DNA of 34,793 nt from a virus. Positions within the stretch are counted from its first letter, which is position 1, and every line of letters begins with the position of its first letter. Location of the stretch: the IMG/VR virus record IMGVR_UViG_3300045988_167882, positions 1-34,793 of that record; one strand, 5' to 3'. The notes under the pieces are model-generated. The model made no database searches. It was not told the origin of the DNA and saw only the letters and a list, made by a program, of their open reading frames with translations. The translations under genes and the position numbers were made by a program. This document shows positions 2,219 to 31,522 of the stretch, piece by piece.

Positions 2219-2526
2219 GAAGAAAAGATGTACAAAATAAAACAAGAGAAATATTGCGAACAGAACCTTACTCACGTGAAAACGATGGCTATCTAATAAG
2301 ACGAGTTATAGAAGAACTAGAACCAGATTTGTATAAAAACAGTTTTAAAACAATCATGGACAATCTTCAATTTTCAGGAATAAGCATTGAAAGTATAACA
2401 AGAGCTAGAAGAAAGTTTTTTGAAGATAATCCAGAGTTGAAAATAGACAAAGCGGAAAAAGCAAGACGAGAAAAAGAGCAAGAATATTATTTAGAATATT
2501 CAAGACATATACCAAGAATTGATTAG
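2215..2526 (+). CDS. Hypothetical protein
   Basis: 103-aa ORF, SD GGGAGG 6 nt upstream. Confidence 0.65.
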   Translation: MRRKDVQNKTREILRTEPYSRENDGYLIRRVIEELEPDLYKNSFKTIMDNLQFSGISIESITRARRKFFEDNPELKIDKAEKARREKEQEYYLEYSRHIPRID

Positions 2527-2539
2527 AAAGGAGTTCGTT

Positions 2540-2758
2540 ATGATTAAGAGGTTAAAAAATATAAAAATATCAAAAGAGTTTAAGATGAAATATCCCAGAA
2601 CATTAAAGCTAATAAGTAAAATGGAATATTACTTAAGAAATAACAAATTTGAACAGCCAATAGTAATAAACAAAGACAATGTTTTAGTAGATGGCTATAC
2701 AAGTTACATAATAGCACAAATGCTAAATAAAAAATGGGTAAGAGTGGAAAGAGTATGA
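2540..2758 (+). CDS. Small protein, possibly ParB N-terminal-domain-like
   Basis: ATG 2540 has SD AAAGGAG at 7-nt spacing; the track start 2519 is a TTG without SD. QPIVINKDNVLVDGYTSYIIAQMLN resembles the ParB/Srx core (weak). Confidence 0.5.
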   Translation: MIKRLKNIKISKEFKMKYPRTLKLISKMEYYLRNNKFEQPIVINKDNVLVDGYTSYIIAQMLNKKWVRVERV

Positions 2759-2914
2759 AACAGTTAGCAGACATGCCAGGAATATGCAAATATTGTGTAC
2801 GGGTGTTTGAGACTAGAAGATGAAAACTTTAAAAGTAGATACAGATGCAAAGACTTTGAAGCTAATCAAATAAACTGGCAAGATTTAATGAGAGAGGAAT
2901 TAAAGAAAAAGTGA
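2755..2914 (+). CDS. Small Cys-rich protein, reading frame interrupted (+1 shift needed at CGG 2800-2802)
   Basis: ATG 2755 gives MKQLADMPGICKYCV-CGG..TGA 2821. The +1 frame continues GCLRLEDENFKSRYRCKDFEANQINWQDLMREELKKK to TGA 2912-2914, which overlaps the next gene's GTG. Confidence 0.45.
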
Positions 2915-3486
2915 ATAGAATTGAAATACCATTTAGATTACCAAGCTTAAATCAAGAAAAATGGAAATATATTAAAAATTCAAGTGAATATGAAATATCA
3001 ACATTGGGAAATATCCGTAGAAACAAAAGAAATTTAAAAATTTCGGACAAACCAACATATAAAATAATTAGGTTGAAATTAGATGATAAATACAAAACAT
3101 ACTATATACATAGATTGGTTGCAGAAACTTTTGTTCCAAATGTAAATAAAAAAGAATTTGTTAATCATAAAGATGGCAACAAGCATAACAATAATATTGA
3201 TAATTTAGAGTGGTGTACAAGACAAGAAAATGAGATACATGCTTGGAAAAACGGATTAAAAGAGAAAATAAGAGAGACATCAAAAGAAAATCTTAAAATA
3301 GCTAGAAAATATATACATGTAAACAAACCAGTCAATCAATTTGATTTAAATATGAATTTTATAAAAAAATGGGATTCAGCATTTCAAGCGCAAAAAAAGA
3401 TTGGAATAGATAGCTCAGCGATAAGCAAATGTTGTAATAATAAATTAAAGAAAGCAGGTGGTTATATATGGCAATTTGCAAAATAG
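2911..3486 (+). CDS. HNH homing endonuclease (NUMOD4 + HNH_3 + C-terminal DNA-binding motif). The first 15 codons duplicate the 5' end of the rusA-like gene.
   Basis: 191-aa ORF, GTG start. EKWKYIKNSSEYEISTLGNIRR is NUMOD4-like. HRLVAETFVPN..VNHKDGNKHNNNIDNLEW is the HNH motif. GIDSSAISKCCNNKLKKAGGYIW is a NUMOD1/IENR-like helix. Confidence 0.85.
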   Translation: MNRIEIPFRLPSLNQEKWKYIKNSSEYEISTLGNIRRNKRNLKISDKPTYKIIRLKLDDKYKTYYIHRLVAETFVPNVNKKEFVNHKDGNKHNNNIDNLEWCTRQENEIHAWKNGLKEKIRETSKENLKIARKYIHVNKPVNQFDLNMNFIKKWDSAFQAQKKIGIDSSAISKCCNNKLKKAGGYIWQFAK

Positions 3487-3515
3487 AAATACCTTTTAGA
3501 TTGCCATCTCTCTGA
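3468..3515 (+). pseudogene. 5' fragment of the RusA-like resolvase gene (MAICKIEIPFRLPSL*), 2 nt out of frame with 3563-3829
   Basis: SD AGGTGG 6 nt upstream of ATG 3468. Deleting one CT from tctctctg (3507-3514) joins it to ..NQYINECRKNRFAGANMKKNIES... Confidence 0.55.
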
Positions 3516-3562
3516 ATCAATACATAAATGAGTGTAGAAAAAATAGATTTGCAGGTGCAAAT

Positions 3563-3829
3563 ATGAAGAAGAATATTGAAAGCGATATAGGCTATTATAT
3601 AAATTTATTACCTCAATATAAAAGACCTGTTAGAATCCATTTTCATTGGGTAGAAGAGAACAAAAAAAGAGATTTAGATAATGTATGTTTCGCTAAAAAA
3701 TTTATATTGGATTCAATGGTAAAAGCAGGAAAACTTAAAGATGATAACAGAAACTTTGTAAAGGGATTTACAGATACATTTGAATATGGCAAAGAATCAA
3801 AAGTTATTTTAGAAATTGAGGAGGAATAA
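3563..3829 (+). CDS. rusA: RusA-like Holliday junction resolvase (N-terminally truncated as an intact ORF)
   Basis: KKRDLDNVCFAKKFILDSMVKAGKLKDDNRNFV matches the RusA catalytic region RRRDLDNLxKxxxDALxxAGxxxDD. The upstream in-frame sequence SLNQYINECRKNRFAGAN matches the RusA N-terminal PSxNxYxxxxR motif but is closed by a stop at 3497. Confidence 0.75.
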   Translation: MKKNIESDIGYYINLLPQYKRPVRIHFHWVEENKKRDLDNVCFAKKFILDSMVKAGKLKDDNRNFVKGFTDTFEYGKESKVILEIEEE

Positions 3830-7342: not shown

Positions 7343-7498
7343 ATGACAAAAATATGTGAAACTTGTAAATATTATTTAGCAGGTAGAGGTAAATACGGAA
7401 CAGGAATATGTAAATCAACAAATTCAAATAAAAGAAATAAGAATTTTGTTCTAAAAAAAGAGACATGTTCTAAATGGGAAAGGAGAACGAATGAATAA
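7343..7498 (+). CDS. Small Cys-rich (zinc-ribbon-like) protein, 51 aa
   Basis: SD GAGAGGTG. Product MTKICETCKYYLAGRGKYGTGICKSTNSNKRNKNFVLKKETCSKWERRTNE. Overlaps the next start. Confidence 0.5.
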   Translation: MTKICETCKYYLAGRGKYGTGICKSTNSNKRNKNFVLKKETCSKWERRTNE

Positions 7499-7919
7499 AA
7501 TAAGCAGAGAAGAATATAAAGAAGCAAAAGGATGTTTAAAAAGATATAACTATAATTGCATAAATATAATGAACATAAGAGCAGATATAATGAGTTTAGG
7601 TGGGCAAGGAATAGATGGTATGCCAAAAGCTCCTTATGCGATTTCAGATAGAGTATTTAACAGTGTTATAAAATTACAAGAAGATGAACATTTGCAGAAA
7701 TCAATAAAAGAATACAAAGCAGTTGTACAAGCTCTAGAATTAGTTAATAAAGACTGCAAAGAGTTATTTGAAAAATATTACATACAAAGCAAATCAAAAT
7801 GGGATATAATCAATTCTGGTATGTCTGAAAGGACATTTGGAAGAAGAAAACAAGAATTAATATATGCAGTTGGAAATGAATTAAAAAAAGTTGGCATAAA
7901 TTTGGCAAAAAAACAGTAA
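7491..7919 (+). CDS. ArpU/RinA-family late-gene transcriptional activator (sigma region-4-like)
   Basis: 142-aa ORF, SD AAAGGAG. N-terminal YKEAKGCLKRYNYN..ADIMSLGG and C-terminal SERTFGRRKQELIYAVGNEL are typical of ArpU-type regulators. Last gene before the packaging region. Confidence 0.7.
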   Translation: MNKISREEYKEAKGCLKRYNYNCINIMNIRADIMSLGGQGIDGMPKAPYAISDRVFNSVIKLQEDEHLQKSIKEYKAVVQALELVNKDCKELFEKYYIQSKSKWDIINSGMSERTFGRRKQELIYAVGNELKKVGINLAKKQ

Positions 7920-8015
7920 AAAAACGTGTTAAAATAGTATCAGTGAAAGTAGCAGATAGAAATATCTCATTAGACCGAGCTACTAAAATAAAAGAGCAAA
8001 GAAGCGCTCCCTAAA

Positions 8016-8050
8016 AGAGCTGACGTTTTAAATGTCAGCTCTTTAAATTT
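8016..8050 (+). terminator. Rho-independent terminator after the late regulator
   Basis: Stem agagctgac (8016-8024) / gtcagctct (8034-8042), followed by ttaaattt. Confidence 0.7.
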
Positions 8051-8077
8051 GATAAATTTATATAAAAATGGTATAAT
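8049..8077 (+). promoter_or_regulatory. Sigma-A type promoter Pa
   Basis: TTGATA - 17 nt - TATAAT, with TGG immediately upstream of the -10. Confidence 0.6.
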
Positions 8078-8111
8078 AACATTAGAGATTAAATAAATTA
8101 AACAAAAAGTA

Positions 8112-8140
8112 TTGATTTTTTAAAATTACTCTAGTATAAT
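8112..8140 (+). promoter_or_regulatory. Sigma-A type promoter Pb
   Basis: TTGATT - 17 nt - TATAAT. Confidence 0.65.
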
Positions 8141-8146
8141 ATTAAT

Positions 8147-8269
8147 ACTGAAATGATAAAGTGATAATCATAGGAGGTTTTTATCAGCCAACCATTTCAA
8201 AGTAAGCATTAATACTTATCCATATAAGGAGAACAAAAAATACTAGAGACGGCAATCTCTAGTATTTTA
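8147..8269 (+). ncRNA. Candidate antitoxin sRNA (about 120 nt) of a par/Fst-like type I TA locus
   Basis: Lies between promoter Pb and the terminator at 8235-8270. No ORF with a usable start. Segment 8201-8223 (agtaagcattaatacttatccat) is a direct repeat of 8324-8347, so the RNA is complementary to the start-codon region of the opposite-strand peptide mRNA. Confidence 0.5.
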
Positions 8270-8270
8270 A
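8235..8270. terminator. Bidirectional rho-independent terminator
   Basis: aaaaaa-tactagaga-cggcaa-tctctagta-tttt: 9-bp stem flanked by an A-run and a T-run. Confidence 0.75.
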
Positions 8271-8281
8271 TATGTATTAGA

Positions 8282-8347
8282 TTATTTAAATAATTCTAAG
8301 ATTAAATAAATAAACACTAATACAGTAAGCATTATTACTTTATCCAT
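8282..8347 (-). CDS. Candidate type I toxin: 21-aa hydrophobic peptide MDKVIMLTVLVFIYLILELFK
   Basis: SD AAAGGTGGTGA (complement of 8352-8362) 7 nt from the ATG; a second in-frame ATG lies at 8350. Own consensus promoter at 8395-8423. Terminates at the shared terminator. Confidence 0.5.
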   Translation of the reverse strand: MDKVIMLTVLVFIYLILELFK

Positions 8348-8394
8348 CATATCACCACCTTTCACAGGATAAGTAATATAGAAGAACAAAAAAT

Positions 8395-8423
8395 ATTATA
8401 CTATGAGTTAGAAAAATAATCAA
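8395..8423 (-). promoter_or_regulatory. Sigma-A type promoter for the peptide gene
   Basis: The minus strand reads TTGATT - 17 nt - TATAAT. Confidence 0.65.
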
Positions 8424-8446
8424 CATAAAAATACAAAATTATACAA

Positions 8447-8478
8447 AGAGCTTATCAAAAACGATAGGCTCTTTTATA
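8447..8478. terminator. Hairpin terminator (bidirectional appearance)
   Basis: agagcttatc / gataggctct: 10-bp stem with one G-U pair, loop aaaaac, T-rich on both sides. Confidence 0.55.
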
Positions 8479-8480
8479 TT

Positions 8481-8550
8481 GCCATTTACAAGTCAGTAGT
8501 GAGAAAGATACGTCTCATAAGTCTACTACTAAATTCTAGAAGTAAATGGC
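8481..8550. other. Extended imperfect inverted repeat / candidate structured RNA
   Basis: gccatttac (8481-8489) pairs with gtaaatggc (8542-8550). Inner pairs are agtagt/actact and gaga/tctc. No ORF. Confidence 0.4.
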
Positions 8551-8939
8551 ACTAATTAGTTATTAACAATACTAGGTAAGTTAATATAAATTGGCTTTAA
8601 AAAGCCTCCTTTCGTAGAATAAAAATGGTGTAACTAGAGCTTTCCTAGTGAGTTCTAATAAAGTATAAAATAATATGTAGTGATATATTATCTAAAGTGA
8701 AAGCCAGTCCAATGTGGAATAATAGATAGAGTTTGCAAACGGTATATCATTACATAGTATTTTATATAACATTAAACAAATTTATATGCAGTGCGAAGTA
8801 TGTGTAGCAGAATGGCAAAAAGTAATCTATTATAGATGAAATACAAGATATTCAGTTCTAGAGTGCAATTATATATAACTTACATATTTCGTAGTATTTA
8901 TAAAAATATCAAAAAAAATGCAAACATTTTTATGAAAAG

Positions 8940-8968
8940 TTGACATAACAAAAACGATGTTGTATAAT
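8940..8968 (+). promoter_or_regulatory. Consensus sigma-A promoter of a moron
   Basis: TTGACA - 17 nt - TATAAT, exact consensus. Confidence 0.75.
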
Positions 8969-9025
8969 TACAAAGTAACTTGTAGTAGATGTATTTTTAA
9001 AGCAAATGCTTTAGGAGGTAGAAAT

Positions 9026-9247
9026 ATGAGTTATTGGAATGGAAGTTATGAGGATAGTACGGAAGGACAACAGACACTTGAAGACGATATCTTTGACGCT
9101 GGATTAGGTAAGTTTGCTTATCCATGCGGAAGTGGAACTATCAAGGAAACTCAAAATTCTATTAATGTATATTTTCCAGACAGCAATGATCCAAGTGGAC
9201 ATTCGCATATGGGTGTAAACAGAAATGGAGATTTCTATCAAAAATAA
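9026..9247 (+). CDS. Hypothetical 73-aa acidic protein (moron with its own promoter and terminator)
   Basis: ATG 9026 has SD AGGAGG at 7-nt spacing. The track start 8957 would lie inside the promoter. Product MSYWNGSYEDSTEGQQTLEDD... Confidence 0.7.
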   Translation: MSYWNGSYEDSTEGQQTLEDDIFDAGLGKFAYPCGSGTIKETQNSINVYFPDSNDPSGHSHMGVNRNGDFYQK

Positions 9248-9270
9248 CATTTCATACAAATGTTATAAAA

Positions 9271-9303
9271 AAAAGGGCACTGATTATTTCAGTGCTTTTT
9301 TTA
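9271..9303 (+). terminator. Rho-independent terminator
   Basis: gcactg / cagtgc stem, T7 run, A-run upstream. Confidence 0.75.
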
Positions 9304-9334
9304 TGTAATAAATTAAATCAAAAGAGGTAAATAT

Positions 9335-9490
9335 ATGAAAATAGAATGTACAGTACAAGAATTAATTGAATTAATTGAGAACAAAAAAGAAACACCAGTT
9401 GTTTTTACGACTGGTGTTTCAAGTATAAAAGTTGATAAAACTATTCCATGTGACCGATTGAAAAACCAATTATTTGGTCAACAAATATAA
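9335..9490 (+). CDS. Questionable 51-aa ORF
   Basis: SD AAGAGG at 7-nt spacing. However, the ORF contains the terminator hairpin of the convergent gene and overlaps that gene's 3' end. Confidence 0.3.
   Translation: MKIECTVQELIELIENKKETPVVFTTGVSSIKVDKTIPCDRLKNQLFGQQI
9377..9420 (-). terminator. Rho-independent terminator of the minus-strand gene
   Basis: Perfect 11-bp stem gaaacaccagt / actggtgtttc, followed on the minus strand by TTTTTTGTT. Confidence 0.75.
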
Positions 9491-10106: not shown

Positions 10107-10247
10107 ATGTTGAATTTATTAATAAACATATTGATATGTTGTGGAATTATATTAGCTTCTTTTATAGCTATATGTTTAGCAATAATAGCAGTATATATAT
10201 TAATGTTAATTATTAAAATAGTTTTAAATGAGCTGAATAAAAAGTAG
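10107..10247 (+). CDS. Small hydrophobic membrane peptide, 46 aa
   Basis: SD AGGAGG. Product MLNLLINILICCGIILASFIAICLAIIAVYILMLIIKIVLNELNKK. Confidence 0.55.
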   Translation: MLNLLINILICCGIILASFIAICLAIIAVYILMLIIKIVLNELNKK

Positions 10248-10257
10248 GTGGAGGTAG

Positions 10258-10635
10258 ATGGCTAATGAACAAAATTTAATACCATGGAATAAACGAACCA
10301 AGAGCGAACAGAGAGAATATGCAAAAAAAGGTGGTCAAAAATCAGGAGAAGTAAGACGACAAAGAAAAGCTATGAAAGAACAAATGGAAATGTTATTATC
10401 ACTACCGTTTAAACAACAAAAACAATTAAAATTTATTGAAGATTTAGGAATAGAAACAGATGACATAGATAATCAAATGGCACTTTTAGTAGCAATGTAT
10501 GGAAAAGCATTAAAAGGAGATGTACAAGCATTTAATACTATAAGAGAAGTAGCTCAAGATGAAAAAACAAATAATAACAATAATAGAATTGAAATAATAA
10601 ATGACTTACCAGAGGATGATGAAGATGAGAGTTAG
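10258..10635 (+). CDS. terS: Terminase small subunit
   Basis: 125-aa ORF, SD GGTGGAGG. KGGQKSGEVRRQRKAMKE motif and an acidic tail. Directly upstream of TerL. Confidence 0.75.
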   Translation: MANEQNLIPWNKRTKSEQREYAKKGGQKSGEVRRQRKAMKEQMEMLLSLPFKQQKQLKFIEDLGIETDDIDNQMALLVAMYGKALKGDVQAFNTIREVAQDEKTNNNNNRIEIINDLPEDDEDES

Positions 10636-11992
10636 AATAAAAGACATTATAGCTCCACATTTTTGGAATACATTTAATAGTAAAAAAACGAATCAAATAT
10701 ACAAAGGTGGAAGAAGTTCTACGAAATCTTCAATGATTTCCATAAAAATAGTATATAACTGTTTAAATAATAACAACTGTTCTGGGGTAATATTAAGAAA
10801 ACACCAAAATCAATTAAGAAAATCTGTATATAAAGAAATAAAAAGAGCTTGTAAAAGATTAGGGCTAGAAGAAGGAATTGATTATGATGCTAAATTATCA
10901 CCAATGGAAATACAGTTCAATAATGGAAATACAATTTATTTTGCAGGTGGAGATGATTATGAAGCTGTAAAAGGAATGATAGATGAAAATACTCTTATAA
11001 AAATGGTATGGTTCGAGGAATTAACAGGATGGGATAATCCAGAAGATGTAGACCAAATAAAAGCTACTTTTATGAGAGGTAATGATGATTGGTTTATTAC
11101 TTTTTATTCATTTAATCCACCAAAAAATAAGTTTGACTGGGTAAACAAATGGACAGAAGAAAAAGAAAAGAGTAATAACTATTTAGTTAATCAAAGCGAC
11201 TATAGGACAGTTCCAAAAGAATGGCTAGGACAAATAGCTATACAAGAAGCAGAAGAATTAAAACAAAATGATGAAAAACGTTACAAATGGATTTACTTAG
11301 GTGAGGTAATAGGATTAGAGGGACTTATATATAATCCTGATTTAATAGAATATGTAGATGAAGATTACATAGAGCAAAACAAGATAAAAATATTATATAT
11401 AGATTTTGCCATAGATAGTGGACATCAAACATCAGCAACAGCAGTAGGATGTTATGGACTAGGAAATGATGGATATTGGTATTTATTAGATACATACTAT
11501 TACAGTCCTCATGAAAAGTCAGTAAAGAAAGCACCAAGTGAATTAAGTAAAGATATATTCGATTTTGAAGTTACTATGATAAAAAAATATAAAACAGTAA
11601 TGGATAAAGAAACAATAGATTCAGCAGAAGGAGCATTGAGAAATCAATTTTTTAAAGATTATGGAAGAAGATTACATCCAGTTGATAAAGGAACAGACAA
11701 AGAACAACTAATAGAATATTCTCAAGACTTTCTATCAAAAAGAAAATTTAGAGTATTAAATAATAATAATAATAAGATATTCAAAAAAGAAAATGAAAAC
11801 TATATGTGGGTAAAAGATAGTGTAGAAAAGGGAAAGCCAACTCCAGATAAAACGGAGAAGGCTTTTTTAAGTTCAGAAAAATACTATAACACATATACCA
11901 AAGATTATGCTTATAGCTATGGAGACCACACACAAGATAATTTTCAATATTGGATAAAAGATAATTTACAAAAGCTAGGCTTAAAATATTAG
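10625..11992 (+). CDS. terL: Terminase large subunit (PBSX-type)
   Basis: Walker A-like KGGRSSTKSS near the N-terminus, FEELTG (Walker B region), nuclease-half DSGHQTSATA. The start could also be 10601. Confidence 0.85.
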   Translation: MRVRIKDIIAPHFWNTFNSKKTNQIYKGGRSSTKSSMISIKIVYNCLNNNNCSGVILRKHQNQLRKSVYKEIKRACKRLGLEEGIDYDAKLSPMEIQFNNGNTIYFAGGDDYEAVKGMIDENTLIKMVWFEELTGWDNPEDVDQIKATFMRGNDDWFITFYSFNPPKNKFDWVNKWTEEKEKSNNYLVNQSDYRTVPKEWLGQIAIQEAEELKQNDEKRYKWIYLGEVIGLEGLIYNPDLIEYVDEDYIEQNKIKILYIDFAIDSGHQTSATAVGCYGLGNDGYWYLLDTYYYSPHEKSVKKAPSELSKDIFDFEVTMIKKYKTVMDKETIDSAEGALRNQFFKDYGRRLHPVDKGTDKEQLIEYSQDFLSKRKFRVLNNNNNKIFKKENENYMWVKDSVEKGKPTPDKTEKAFLSSEKYYNTYTKDYAYSYGDHTQDNFQYWIKDNLQKLGLKY

Positions 11993-26925: not shown

Positions 26926-28293
26926 ATGAGAAATAAAATATTAACAATAGCGGTAGCAATATTAACAGCTACTGCTATTTTATTTGGTGTATATGTAAAT
27001 TATACAGAAACAGGAAAAATAGATAAAGATAAAGTAAATGAAGCAGTAGACACAATAGTGGATGCAATAAACACATATGAAATGACAAATGAGCAAGTAG
27101 AAGCTTTACCAACCACAGAAGTGGTCGAACAAACAGAAGAACAAGAAAATGCAGTTGAACAAACTATAGAAAACGAAAACTTTGAATTACAAGGCGAGAT
27201 AGCCTATGAAGGAGCTAAAGCTCAATCTTGGAATGTAGAATTAGGAGATTACAAAGGACTAACATACTATTCTCAATTAGACTCAAGATGGGCAAATAAA
27301 CCATACACAAGTTGTAATAACGGTTCACAAACAATAGGTTCAAGTGGTTGCGCACCAACGTGTGCTAGTATGATAGTTACTGCTACAAAAGGAGCAATAA
27401 CACCAGACACAATGTGCAATTTGTTTGTTAAATATGGCTATAGAAGTTCAAACAACGGAACATATTTAAGTGCATTTAGAGCAGTAGCAGATGAATTTGA
27501 TATTGCTTACGAAGAAACATACAACTTAGACAGAGCAGTAGATTTGTTAAGGAATAATCATTATGTAGCTGCAAGTTGTGCAAATGGGTTATTCACAACA
27601 GGAGGACATTTAATATTAATAGTAGGAATCGATGGAGATACATTAAAAATATATGATCCTTATCTTTATTCAGGAAAATTTGAAACATCTACCAGAAGAG
27701 GAAAAGTAACAGTTTCAGGAAATACTGTATATTGTTCAATAGATAACTTTAGAAGATATGCGAACTATACTAGATTCTTTGCATATGCTCACGATGAAAA
27801 TGTACCAACAAATAATACAAAACCAGTTGTTACAAATACATATACAAGATATGTTAAAGCAAATGGTGGATTAAATGTAAGATATTCTCCTAACGGAAAG
27901 AAAGTTGGAGCAATAACAAATGGAACACAAGTAACAATATATTCAACAAATGGCAACTGGTCAGAAATAGGAACTAACAGATGGATTTGTAGCGATTATC
28001 TAACAAGTTATATGCCTAGCAAGAAAAAATCTACTACAACTAAATCTCGCAAATATACTACAGGAAAATACAAAGTAACATCTAATTTAAATGTAAGAAC
28101 AGGAGCAGGAACAAAATATGCAAGAAAGAGTTATAAACAACTATCTGCAAATGCTAGATTACAAAATCGAAAATTAGGTGGAGAATATTCTGGATATAGA
28201 AAAGGTGTAGTATGCACAGTTACAAAAATAAAAAGCAACTGGGGATATACAAAATCTGGATGGATTTGTTTAGATTATTGTAAAAAAATATAA
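26926..28293 (+). CDS. Endolysin: N-terminal signal-anchor, C39-like (papain-fold) peptidase, two SH3 domains
   Basis: TM ILTIAVAILTATAILFGVYV. YYSQLDSRWANKPY..SSGCAPTCASMIV..GGHLILIVG..YDPY is C39_2-like. Two SH3b-like repeats (LNVRYSPNGKKVG.., LNVRTGAGTKYA..). Confidence 0.75.
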   Translation: MRNKILTIAVAILTATAILFGVYVNYTETGKIDKDKVNEAVDTIVDAINTYEMTNEQVEALPTTEVVEQTEEQENAVEQTIENENFELQGEIAYEGAKAQSWNVELGDYKGLTYYSQLDSRWANKPYTSCNNGSQTIGSSGCAPTCASMIVTATKGAITPDTMCNLFVKYGYRSSNNGTYLSAFRAVADEFDIAYEETYNLDRAVDLLRNNHYVAASCANGLFTTGGHLILIVGIDGDTLKIYDPYLYSGKFETSTRRGKVTVSGNTVYCSIDNFRRYANYTRFFAYAHDENVPTNNTKPVVTNTYTRYVKANGGLNVRYSPNGKKVGAITNGTQVTIYSTNGNWSEIGTNRWICSDYLTSYMPSKKKSTTTKSRKYTTGKYKVTSNLNVRTGAGTKYARKSYKQLSANARLQNRKLGGEYSGYRKGVVCTVTKIKSNWGYTKSGWICLDYCKKI

Positions 28294-29613: not shown

Positions 29614-29636
29614 TTGACAACTTTATTGACAACTTT
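29614..29636. repeat. attP arm (P'): TTGACAACTTT x2 direct, overlapping the int stop codon
   Basis: 29614-29624 and 29626-29636, exact copies. Confidence 0.7.
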
Positions 29637-30741
29637 TTTCTATAGTTTTACAGATGTAACTATTTATTAATTCATCTGCATTTTCTCTTTCTTCGTCCAA
29701 ATGAGTGTATATGTTATAAACCATATCTGCAGAAGAATGCCCCATTAATTCTTGGGCTTTTTTAATTTTTACTCCAGCATAATATAACATTGTACAATAA
29801 GAATGTCTTAATTGATAATAAGAGAATTTAATTTTTTCATCTTCATTTTCTATATTTTTATTTATAGTTGTTAAAAAAGAATCTAAATGAGTTTTTAAGG
29901 CTTGTTTGGTTAACATAGCATATTTATCAGTTTCTTTAGTAAAAACGTATTCAATTTGATTTTCAGAGCAATAAGCTAGTCTTTCAGATAATAGTTCAAT
30001 TAAAAAATCTGGGATAGGTACTTTTCTATTCTTTAAATTTTTAGTAGGCTTTTTTACAGGTTGATTTCTTGCAAGAGAAACAGCTTTATTAATATTTAAT
30101 CGTTTATTAATTAAATCAACATCATGTATAGTTAAAGCTACAGCTTCTTCTGGCCTTAGACCGCAATATCTAAGTAATAATATAAATAATCCGTATTTAT
30201 GAGTTAAACCCAAATTAAAAACTTTTAAATCTTCTGATTGTTTCAAAGGCTTTCTTTCAGTCTTAGGAAACTTTGGAGCAGTTATTCCTAAAGCTACATT
30301 TTTAGATATAACATCATTTATAACAGCATCATTTAAAATTCTTTTACAATCTGCTAAAGTACGCTTAGTTAAATCAGTATATCCTTTTTTAGATAAGTCT
30401 GTTACAATTTCTTTTATATGATGATTTTTAAGATTTTTTAATTTTATATTTCCTATATATTCATTTAAATGTTTAATTCTATTTCGAATAGAATCTTGTG
30501 TAGAAATTTCTCTAAGAGAACAATTTATTTCAAACCATTTTTCAGCATATTGCTTGAATGTGATGTTGTTATTATCAATTAAAAGTCCATTGTTAATTTT
30601 ATATTTTAAATCAATGTATTGTTCATATAAATTAGAGGGTTCGTTAGAATAAATATATGTTGGTTTACTATTTATTGTTATCTTTTTCATCAATCTTCCA
30701 TCTTTTCTAATTGTATAATTCATATTTTTATATTTTGGCAT
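29623..30741 (-). CDS. int: Tyrosine integrase
   Basis: 372 aa, SD GGAGGAA. RYCGLRPEEA (catalytic Arg), LRHSYCT..GHSS..Y motif (R-H-x-x-...-H-...-Y) at the C-terminus. Confidence 0.9.
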   Translation of the reverse strand: MPKYKNMNYTIRKDGRLMKKITINSKPTYIYSNEPSNLYEQYIDLKYKINNGLLIDNNNITFKQYAEKWFEINCSLREISTQDSIRNRIKHLNEYIGNIKLKNLKNHHIKEIVTDLSKKGYTDLTKRTLADCKRILNDAVINDVISKNVALGITAPKFPKTERKPLKQSEDLKVFNLGLTHKYGLFILLLRYCGLRPEEAVALTIHDVDLINKRLNINKAVSLARNQPVKKPTKNLKNRKVPIPDFLIELLSERLAYCSENQIEYVFTKETDKYAMLTKQALKTHLDSFLTTINKNIENEDEKIKFSYYQLRHSYCTMLYYAGVKIKKAQELMGHSSADMVYNIYTHLDEERENADELINSYICKTIEKSCQ

Positions 30742-30751
30742 AATTCCTCCT

Positions 30752-30784
30752 TAAAAAATAAGATAAGTATTTTCAACTTATCTT
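30752..30784 (-). terminator. Terminator between repressor and int
   Basis: aagataagt / acttatctt 9-bp stem, followed on the minus strand by ATTTTTT. Confidence 0.6.
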
Positions 30785-31431
30785 TAGTTAATTTCAAATT
30801 TTCCTATGTATTTTCCTAATATCTTAATAGGGGTGTTTTTATCATATATTTGTGTTTTTATATCAGGGTCATCTGTAACAGTAGAATCTGGTTCAAGAAC
30901 AACAATATCTCCTTTTTGTGTAAAATGCTTTAATGTTGCTGTATAACCATTAACAAGGACAACTGCAATTTCTCCATCTTCAACACTGTCTTGTTTTCTA
31001 ATAAGAGCATAAGCACCATTCCTAACAACTTTATTCATACTTTCTCCGTTAACTTTTAGAAAAAAGCATTCTTCTGGATTTATAATACCCATTAGGTTAG
31101 GGTCAATAGGTAAATAACCCTCAAGGCATTCTTCCGCCCAATTAGGTTGTCCAGCTGAAATTTGACCATAAACAGGTACCATATAGAATTTGTTAGTTTG
31201 TTCATTATCACTTATTTTATCTTCTACTAAATCACTTTTTAAAATATTAAAATAATTTGCTAACATTTCAATTTTATCTATTCTAGGATAATATAAAGCA
31301 TTGCACCAACTTGAAACTGTAGAATATGGAATGTTTGTTATTTGGGCAATATCATTTCTAGTTTTATTATATTTTTCCATATAGTATTTTAGATTTTTAG
31401 AAAAAACCTCTTTATTACCTAAATCACTCAT
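30784..31431 (-). CDS. CI/LexA-like repressor (HTH_XRE + S24 peptidase)
   Basis: ATG at 31431 has SD GGAGG; the track start 31482 lacks one. HTH KTRNDIAQITNIPYSTVSSW. S24 motifs VNGESM and ATLKHF. Confidence 0.85.
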   Translation of the reverse strand: MSDLGNKEVFSKNLKYYMEKYNKTRNDIAQITNIPYSTVSSWCNALYYPRIDKIEMLANYFNILKSDLVEDKISDNEQTNKFYMVPVYGQISAGQPNWAEECLEGYLPIDPNLMGIINPEECFFLKVNGESMNKVVRNGAYALIRKQDSVEDGEIAVVLVNGYTATLKHFTQKGDIVVLEPDSTVTDDPDIKTQIYDKNTPIKILGKYIGKFEIN

Positions 31432-31522
31432 TTTATATAACCTCCACGTATTTATAGTAACATATTTTTTAGAAAAATGCAAAAAAAATTATAGAAAAAC
31501 TGAATTTTTTTTAAAAAAACTA

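Follow-up and report, generated by a model that had tools for sequence, protein, structure and literature searches.

Among toxin–antitoxin (TA) pairs of type I, the par locus of Enterococcus faecalis pAD1 (RNA I, encoding Fst, and RNA II) is described as combining convergent promoters, a bidirectional terminator, the direct repeats DRa and DRb, a 5' stem-loop (5'-SL) masking the Shine–Dalgarno (SD) sequence and an element termed 5'-UH (PMC7472228). Toxins of the Fst/Ldr superfamily carry a signature made of PXXXG, a conserved Trp and a charged tail, and PXXXG is essential for the toxicity of Fst (PMC7472228). Known Gram-positive type I toxins measure 28–60 amino acids (aa) in Bacillus subtilis and 30–59 aa in Clostridioides difficile and its phages; within Clostridia, experimentally validated type I TA systems come from C. 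difficile only (PMC6563280). Here, we analyse a candidate locus at positions 8049–8478 of the IMG/VR virus record IMGVR_UViG_3300045988_167882, whose whole stretch of 34,793 nucleotides (nt) is called the window below. A first-pass annotation had named this interval, which runs from the distal promoter P1 through the terminator T2 (table 1), a par/Fst-like locus. The first part of that name stands, as the RNA architecture is par-like and is kept in 20 cassettes, whereas the second does not, the peptide lacking every Fst/Ldr feature looked for.

We consider it likely that the locus is a type I TA cassette whose RNA regulation is of the par type and which a temperate phage of Clostridia carries as a moron, and that its peptide founds a new family of ultra-short toxins. 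The basis of this proposal is entirely computational and comprises the sequence elements and their conservation, pairing segments that co-vary, an open reading frame (ORF) under purifying selection and the accessory status of the insert; the toxicity of the peptide, the relative stabilities of the two RNAs and the biological role are inferred.

Table 1. Features of the cassette and its insertion site in the window (sRNA, small RNA; TSS, transcription start site; DR, direct repeat).
Feature	Position	Strand	Basis or remark
P1, distal sRNA promoter TTGATA-17-TATAAT, TG extended -10	8049..8077	plus	scan 11/12
P2, proximal sRNA promoter TTGATT-17-TATAAT	8112..8140	plus	scan 10/12
Predicted antitoxin sRNA, ~122 nt from P2	8147..8268	plus	fold -28.1 kcal/mol, z -4.5
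DR1, sRNA copy	8201..8223	plus	complementary to toxin mRNA codons 1-8
DR2, sRNA copy AGGAGAACAAAAAATACTA	8227..8245	plus	89% identical to 8380-8398
T1, shared bidirectional intrinsic terminator: A6, TACTAGAGA-CGGCAA-TCTCTAGTA, T4	8237..8268	both	13-14 bp
Predicted toxin mRNA, ~154 nt	8235..8388	minus	fold -43.2 kcal/mol, z -5.7
Toxin ORF (putative), 21 aa, MDKVIMLTVLVFIYLILELFK	8282..8347 (ATG 8347, TAA 8284-8282)	minus	strand reading, ORF list
DR1, toxin copy, start codon to codon 8	8324..8347	minus	repeat search
SD sequence GAAAGGTGGTGA	8352..8363	minus	sequence reading; kept in classes A and B
DR2, toxin copy	8380..8398	minus	covers part of -10 box, predicted TSS and mRNA first 9 nt
Toxin promoter TTGATT-17-TATAAT	8423-8395	minus	consensus scan 10/12; predicted TSS near 8388
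T2, terminator closing the cassette, AAAGAGCTTATC-loop-GATAGGCTCTTT then TTATATT	8445..8478	plus	inverted-repeat search
Long imperfect hairpin GCCATTTAC...GTAAATGGC with inner stem	8477..8554		repeat search and fold
Accessory insert (moron), ~510 bases	8047..8556		BLAST versus L001-L044; empty site in L001

Two transcription units converge on the shared terminator T1. On the minus strand, the promoter, SD sequence and 21-aa ORF were all recovered where the first-pass annotation had placed them. A second in-frame ATG at 8350 would give a 22-aa form (overall M(M)DKVIMLTVLVFIYLILELFK); the start at 8347 is favoured because its spacing of 7 nt from the SD sequence (GGTGG) is the same in other toxin classes. 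On the plus strand, two tandem promoters had been proposed to drive an RNA of about 120 nt without ORF, and this description holds: both score close to consensus, no ORF of at least 20 aa lies on this strand between 8014 and 8733, and the predicted transcript from P2 is followed in size by an isoform of ~185 nt that P1 would yield. This predicted sRNA is made of a 5' hairpin (8149–8199), an open recognition region (8200–8236) and the terminator hairpin, the ends of both transcripts being deduced from promoter and terminator positions. The hairpin that had been credited with stopping transcription in both directions is indeed called a terminator on both strands, in a 2-kb region with 6 terminator-like sites versus 0.3 expected.

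The two genes are linked by direct repeats, of which the first-pass annotation had reported a single one. That repeat, DR1, was recovered (8201–8217 / 8324–8340, 94% identical without gaps, and extending to 8223 / 8347 with one indel), and it turned out to be accompanied by a second, DR2. In the sRNA gene, DR1 and DR2 are adjacent, just before the terminator, and in the toxin gene they are separated by ~30 nt that include the SD sequence. Read on the minus strand, the sRNA gene is made of the start of the 5' untranslated region followed by the start-codon region (DR2 then DR1), with the SD segment deleted, which fits the earlier suggestion that the toxin 5' end was duplicated and has decayed in the sRNA copy. 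The proposed complementarity of the sRNA to the mRNA from the start codon through codon 8 is supported both by the predicted duplex and by co-variation in the family. In the cofold of the window RNAs, two intermolecular helices are formed, one between the sRNA segment GGAGAAC and the first 9 nt of the mRNA, where GUUCUUC is its partner, the other between the sRNA segment AGUAAGCAUUAAUACUUAUCCAU and AUGGAUAAAGUAAUAAUGCUUACU; the SD hairpin lies between the two helices, and both RNAs retain their own 5' and terminator hairpins. This folding of sRNA against mRNA, which had been suggested as a check, yields a ddG of -23.8 kcal/mol versus -3.0 +/- 1.9 kcal/mol for shuffled sRNA (minimum -9.6).

The cassette of the window belongs to a family. 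A search with DNA patterns from the sRNA 3' end and the terminator, followed by removal of duplicates, retrieved 20 distinct related cassettes from gut phage contigs of IMG/VR, metagenome-assembled genomes (MAGs) of Clostridia from human, rabbit and goat gut, and one GenBank phage; the cassette of one human gut contig (L062) is identical to that of the window, and identity over the cassette is noted for ENA contig UOOA01036562. In IMG/VR, with its 2.9 million records, the family amounts to about two dozen contigs, to which the MAGs are to be added. All 20 have the sRNA side, a convergent ORF of 21–26 aa led by an SD sequence, and a terminator that reads TACTAGAG...CTCTAGTA or nearly so. Five peptide classes can be distinguished: A, M(M)DK[VLF]IML[AT]VL[VA][FL]IYLIL[ES]LF[KR] (the window and six others); B, M..[IFL]IKL[LIV]VLIIIA[CY]ILKMFD (five members); C, MKNFFKIFVKLYVLKTIKDILKMFE-like (five members); D, MSKWIKLFVKVYVVTLLYKIFKGFCE (one distinct cassette, on three contigs); and E, MNNLFRVVALIVIYLILKQFGN / MKSFFKLLALLLIYLIFKNFDN (two members). 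When IMG/VR was scanned for the exact pattern of the class-A SD and start region, all class-A genes were located inside such cassettes, and a degenerate ILKMF[DE] pattern returned mostly random matches and one new cassette (L153). In GenBank phages, no match was obtained by megablast with a 20-kb part of the window or by tblastn with a class-C peptide, and blastn with the cassette gave one weak match that proved to be a genuine cassette, in PQ006095.1 (L082, Bajarodcaudo virus 4; 38237–38700). In the deposited annotation of this record, neither the 22-aa toxin nor the sRNA is marked, and a 'hypothetical protein' coding sequence is drawn across the sRNA promoter region.

Conservation concerns each element of the cassette. 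In each of the 18 cassettes with a complete 5' flank, the toxin promoter scores 10/12 and has the 17-nt spacing, and every predicted toxin mRNA begins G(U/C)(U/C) at +7. Of 19 cassettes, 17 have an equivalent of P2 (10–12/12, 17-nt spacing), the one in L064 and L070 having been misplaced by the automatic search, and a TGGTATAAT box is kept at the position of P1 in many. The T1 stem is kept in 19 cassettes, including one A–T to T–A compensated pair, and T2 is kept with its plus-strand T-run in most of them; T2 is also present behind unrelated cargo in L028 and L025. The family sRNAs (~105–137 nt) have the three-part layout described above, with an open stretch of ~40 nt. As for the mRNAs, the 5' end of that of the window is predicted to pair with the SD-proximal and AUG region, the probability of the SD sequence being unpaired, P(unpaired), amounting to 0.17. 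The SD sequence is likewise predicted to be paired in 17 of 17 modelled family mRNAs (P(unpaired) <=0.26), with an anti-SD partner that is not the same in each class: CAUAUUAC serves in class A, ACCUCCUU in part of class B and UUCCUCC in class C. According to these models, the masking structure is retained while its sequence changes across classes. The first 6 nt of the mRNA, considered for comparison with the 5'-UH of par, have a P(unpaired) of 0.21 in the window and of 0.2 to 0.98 in other members.

The pairing segments change together across this family. For DR2, the pairs include GGAGAAC/GUUCUC, GGAAAC/GUUUCC, AAUGGC/GCCAUU and AAUGAC/GUCAUU, depending on the class, and DR1 tracks the first codons of its own toxin. 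Within class A, the DR1 core reads GTAAGCA in the window, GCAAGCA in three cassettes (L049, L054, L068), GCGAGCA in L075 and GCCAACA in L046, each time in both copies; in L075 and L046, the toxin has switched to a synonymous Leu codon and the sRNA mirrors the switch. One exception was found, L053, where GTAAGCA in the sRNA faces GCAAGCA in the toxin and a G–U wobble pair is still possible. Such mirrored co-variation is the pattern predicted by selection for pairing. The same trend appears in an 18 x 18 duplex-energy matrix, in which each 55-nt recognition segment was confronted with each mRNA (TSS to AUG+33): the mean energy was -30.9 kcal/mol for cognate pairs, -23.8 for non-cognate pairs of the same class and -15.3 +/- 4.7 for pairs of different classes, all absolute values being inflated because duplexfold ignores intramolecular structure and allows large loops. 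The cognate partner was the best in its row in 13 of 18 cases, and the cognate mean was reached by none of 100,000 random re-pairings (p=0.0004 within class A, p=0.008 within class C).

The ORF itself is under purifying selection. Disruption of the ORF in relatives had been named as an observation that would speak against the interpretation; instead, ORF length is constant within each class, with zero frameshifts or internal stops. Pooled pN/pS ratios are 0.26 (class A, seven cassettes), 0.26 (class B) and 0.31 (class C), the variable sites are mostly third codon positions, and the peptide replacements are conservative (V/L/F, A/T, K/R).

Accessory status is indicated by the insertion site. 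The window (~27% GC, 25% in the cassette region) is the genome of a tailed phage judged temperate because it encodes, according to a Pfam scan, a tyrosine integrase (29623–30741, minus strand), an S24/HTH repressor (30784–31482, minus strand) and a large terminase (10601–11992); an endolysin-like protein (26926–28293) was detected by the same scan. The cassette sits in a 1-kb non-coding gap, with a 142-aa ORF (7491–7919, no match in the Pfam scan) on one side and the packaging genes on the other. We retrieved 44 loci encoding relatives of this 142-aa ORF (L001–L044) and compared them by BLAST with window positions 7920–8960. The nearest relatives (L001–L003) match the window until ~8046 and again from ~8557, and the site is empty in L001 (4560–4575), which reads ...gtcagctctttaa|ttatgattattaccagtatactagg without interruption. 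Unrelated cargo occupies the same site in L003 (4570–4850, a small ORF of ~80–85 aa) and in L028 (4600–4960, a promoter, an 83-aa ORF and T2). Since the site is empty in one relative and filled with other cargo in others, the segment 8047–8556 is an accessory insert at a moron hot spot. This hot spot (8047 and 8557 in the window) lies between the 142-aa ORF's terminator and an inverted-repeat motif, A(T/C)(G/A)CTAGGTA, that is conserved.

Several further observations were made. In the window, the long imperfect hairpin directly follows T2 within the insertion and is missing from all other cassettes (fold of 8440–8560, z -6.9). A 46-aa very hydrophobic ORF (MLNLLINILICCGIILASFIAICLAIIAVYILMLIIKIVLNELNKK) lies at 10107–10247 on the plus strand, just upstream of a 125-aa ORF (10258–10635, no Pfam match) that precedes the large terminase gene. 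The class-A cassette of L046 (5418–5493) stands immediately downstream of a tRNA-Met gene, a location different from that of the window, so that the cassette moves between genomic contexts. An uncultured Clostridiaceae MAG (L050, CAMXOP010000042.1) holds a 22-repeat CRISPR array (minus strand, ~2336–3745; repeat GTATTAATTTAAATATAGTAGAATGTAAAG), in which the spacer TAGGGAGAACAAAAAAAATACTAGAGAACGCAATCTC matches the sRNA 3' end and terminator of three class-B cassettes (L020, L051, L067), the sole difference being an A-run one base longer. This match connects the phages with Clostridiaceae hosts and shows the cassette itself to be a CRISPR target.

Taken as a TA module, the cassette could work as follows. 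The near-consensus promoter on the minus strand would give a ~154-nt mRNA for a membrane peptide of 21 aa, which would be poorly translated as long as its 5' stem-loop masks the SD sequence and the AUG. The two plus-strand promoters would give a non-coding RNA of ~122 nt (~185 nt from P1) ending at the shared terminator, and the presence of two promoters for the sRNA versus one for the toxin suggests an excess of antitoxin. Through its open region of ~40 nt, this RNA would bind the extreme 5' end of the mRNA with DR2 and the stretch from the start codon through codon 8 with DR1; the SD hairpin being left between both helices, ribosomes would be kept from loading and RNases would be presented with a long duplex. 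Contact between the RNAs may be nucleated by their complementary terminator loops, as happens in par. Plus-strand transcription reading past T1, which is weaker in that direction, would run antisense to the whole toxin gene and presumably stop at T2. In a lysogen, the module would probably act as an addiction or abortive-infection device: once transcription of the element stops, the antitoxin would decay and the peptide would damage the membrane.

An alternative, which we find improbable without being negligible, accepts the antisense regulation but holds that the peptide is a small membrane peptide whose dose is tightly tuned by the sRNA, rather than a growth-arresting toxin. Such a peptide could serve in superinfection exclusion, in the modulation of a host membrane protein or in lysis timing, or could be secreted in the manner of a phenol-soluble modulin or a bacteriocin. 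The peptides of classes C and D are compatible with this view, since they are Lys-rich (net +4) and far less hydrophobic, with a grand average of hydropathy (GRAVY) of 0.5–0.8, unlike simple transmembrane helices; moreover, the slot is a general moron site, as the unrelated cargo of L003 and L028 illustrates. However, class A and B peptides are extremely hydrophobic and resemble Ibs-type toxins: that of the window has a GRAVY of 1.8 and a 14-residue uncharged core between D3-K4 and E19 plus K22 (22-aa numbering). Three layers of repression on a peptide of ~21 aa (masking of the SD sequence, antisense pairing at two sites, and two sRNA promoters versus one) are a hallmark of type I toxins.

Less probable still is that the plus-strand RNA mainly serves another purpose, as a phage sRNA acting in trans on targets of the host or the phage, or as a promoter–terminator insulator at the boundary of early and late genes, its similarity to the toxin gene being left over from a duplication. 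This reading draws on two motifs that the pairing of the repeats does not account for. Most sRNAs (L046, L049, L054, L020 and L051 among them) have an anti-SD-like CCUCCUUUCU in their 5' hairpin, and the window (8171–8176) and L053 have the opposite at that position, an SD-like AGGAGG. Direct SD pairing by CCUCCUUUCU was considered as a general mechanism and rejected, as neither the window nor L053 has the motif, which according to the predictions lies hidden within the sRNA's 5' hairpin and cannot nest with the DR1 pairing. A conserved small ORF in the sRNA (AGGAGG then ATC/ATT, in the window and L053) was also rejected, since neither spacing nor sequence is kept and the other classes are without it. 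In addition, P1, P2 and T2 also flank different cargo: in L025/L026 (4750–5410), the same flanks, P1/P2-like promoters and T2 enclose another convergent small-membrane-protein module. Nevertheless, the sRNA always occurs with a convergent toxin ORF, and a neutral relic would not track the substitutions of its neighbour, synonymous ones included, across five classes.

The L025/L026 cargo deserves a description of its own. Its minus-strand gene encodes 62 aa (MEWLLGIAVILFVLDSLVEKITALLKQLK...), a protein that has a transmembrane segment at its N-terminus, a charged tail and no meaningful match in Pfam or NCBIfam, and is convergent with a plus-strand transcript without ORF; it may be a second, unrelated type I TA on the same chassis. 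As for the origin of the cassette of the window, CTCTAGTA occurs both in the P2 spacer (8127–8134) and in the 3' arm of the terminator (8257–8264), as in most cassettes, and the -10 regions of P2 (8132–8143) and of the toxin promoter (8392–8403) are exact inverted copies (TAGTATAATATT), which together suggest that it arose via internal duplications. An antiterminator pairing of the P2-spacer CTCTAGTA with the terminator was discarded, the copy being absent in L065 and altered in L066, with no co-variation.

Finally, the idea that promoter-like hexamers of AT-rich DNA, a palindrome and a short ORF lie together by chance, devoid of function, can be dismissed: although promoter-like sites are not enriched in the region and short two-copy repeats (several were listed) are frequent in AT-rich DNA, this explanation is already effectively refuted by the comparative data, namely element-by-element conservation in 20 cassettes whose hosts, phages and genomic surroundings differ, an ORF under purifying selection, and a cognate pairing matched by 0/100,000 permutations.

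Some of our results weigh against the interpretation as a toxin–antitoxin cassette. Promoter-like hits in the region number 11 versus 13.3 expected, so that the case for the promoters rests on their near-consensus scores and conserved positions in 19 cassettes. The U-tract of T1 is shorter plus-ward (UUUU then AAUAU) than minus-ward (UUUUUU), which makes the 3' end of the sRNA uncertain. Gene conversion between the repeat copies could partly keep them similar, even if conversion itself would need maintaining, and the inflated duplex energies reported above belong here too. The toxicity of Fst is not transferable by homology to a peptide without PXXXG. Lastly, no support for function was found for the peptides in database families or in the literature. 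Indeed, the covariance and peptide family searches suggested by the first-pass annotation brought no match to known type I families in Rfam, Pfam or NCBIfam. A cmscan of positions 7400–9400 against Rfam 15 (E<=10) gave weak matches, well below gathering scores and none over 8060–8424, and the five peptide classes had no meaningful match in Pfam-A or NCBIfam and no toxin-related model at E<=10, the models having low power on peptides of such lengths. A full-text literature search with the peptide strings gave no match, and no description of these peptides or of par-type Clostridia phage cassettes was found in a literature coverage that is incomplete and leaves T1TAdb and the small-ORF catalogues outside.

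Beyond the window, a wider proposal, to which we give about even weight, is that these cassettes form an undescribed phage-borne superfamily of type I TA in gut Clostridia, acting as prophage addiction or abortive-infection modules. One antitoxin chassis (promoters, 5' hairpin and TACTAGAG terminator) would have been re-targeted to at least five dissimilar peptides of 21–26 aa, each time by copying the 5' end of the toxin's own gene into the sRNA gene. If this is true, among the known type I toxins of Gram-positive bacteria these peptides would rank as the shortest, and they would be candidate minimal membrane toxins. Type I TA systems are badly under-annotated because their toxins fall below the length limits of gene callers and their antitoxins are RNAs. 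In this context, the family offers a natural co-variation series of an antitoxin RNA tracking its target (four mirrored variants in one class, and five classes), would uncouple the par RNA architecture from the Fst peptide, and may add a new kind of cargo to the morons of temperate gut phages. Should the peptides be toxic, the modules could be used for counter-selection or containment in low-GC anaerobes, like the C. difficile systems.

How, then, does the cassette compare with described systems? Four of the five RNA-architecture features of par are found here by computation: the convergent promoters, with a shared bidirectional terminator that gives complementary 3' hairpins; the two direct repeats read in opposite directions, with an sRNA pairing around the translation start; and the predicted intramolecular 5' stem-loop of the toxin mRNA over the SD sequence. 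The differences are nonetheless numerous. The peptide has 21 aa versus 33 aa for Fst, the sRNA measures ~105–137 nt with its own 5' hairpin versus ~40–65 nt for RNA II, one of the repeats, instead of flanking the SD sequence, has the mRNA's extreme 5' end as its partner, and the element is phage-borne, in Clostridia. The terminator loop of the window (UGCC/UUGCCG) is also without YUNR, a motif that is not present in all par homologues (PMC7472228). With respect to the Fst/Ldr superfamily, the window peptide is without PXXXG, without the conserved Trp/Val position and without a charged C-terminal tail; it contains no P, G or W at all, and ends 3 residues past its hydrophobic core.

The SprA1/SprA1AS genes of Staphylococcus aureus overlap at their 3' ends, and repression proceeds via a separate, non-overlapping complementarity to the translation start region of the toxin. 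The cassette resembles this pair in its 3' overlap, in its predicted separate pairing at the translation start and, as judged from the hydrophobicity of the window peptide, in encoding a small membrane peptide on a mobile element. It differs in its peptide, since PepA1, with 30 aa, is an Fst family member, and no similarity of sequence with the cassette was detected. A summary of the SprA1 mechanism is among the contents of PMC6563280.

Prophage-located type I modules of C. difficile (such as CD0977.1-RCd11 and CD2517.1-RCd8) share with the cassette the class Clostridia, a frequent prophage location and convergent genes, and their suggested role is the stabilization of mobile elements (PMC6563280, PMC7699646). 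Their toxins have 30–59 aa and a Lys-rich C-terminal region, and the long continuous overlap of their antitoxins suggests a degradation mechanism (PMC6563280). Here, by contrast, the peptide has 21 aa and pairing involves two short repeats plus the terminator, which is the only continuous overlap (~34 nt). In size and hydropathy, the closest counterparts are the Ibs toxins of Escherichia coli, which are extremely hydrophobic, have 18–19 aa and are usually missed by gene callers (PMC2887945); the hydropathy of the window peptide is comparable to that of IbsC. However, the Sib RNAs are fully overlapping antisense RNAs of Gram-negative chromosomes, with no shared terminator or direct-repeat logic. 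As far as its sequence tells, the cassette would thus work like par but is not a member of the Fst family.

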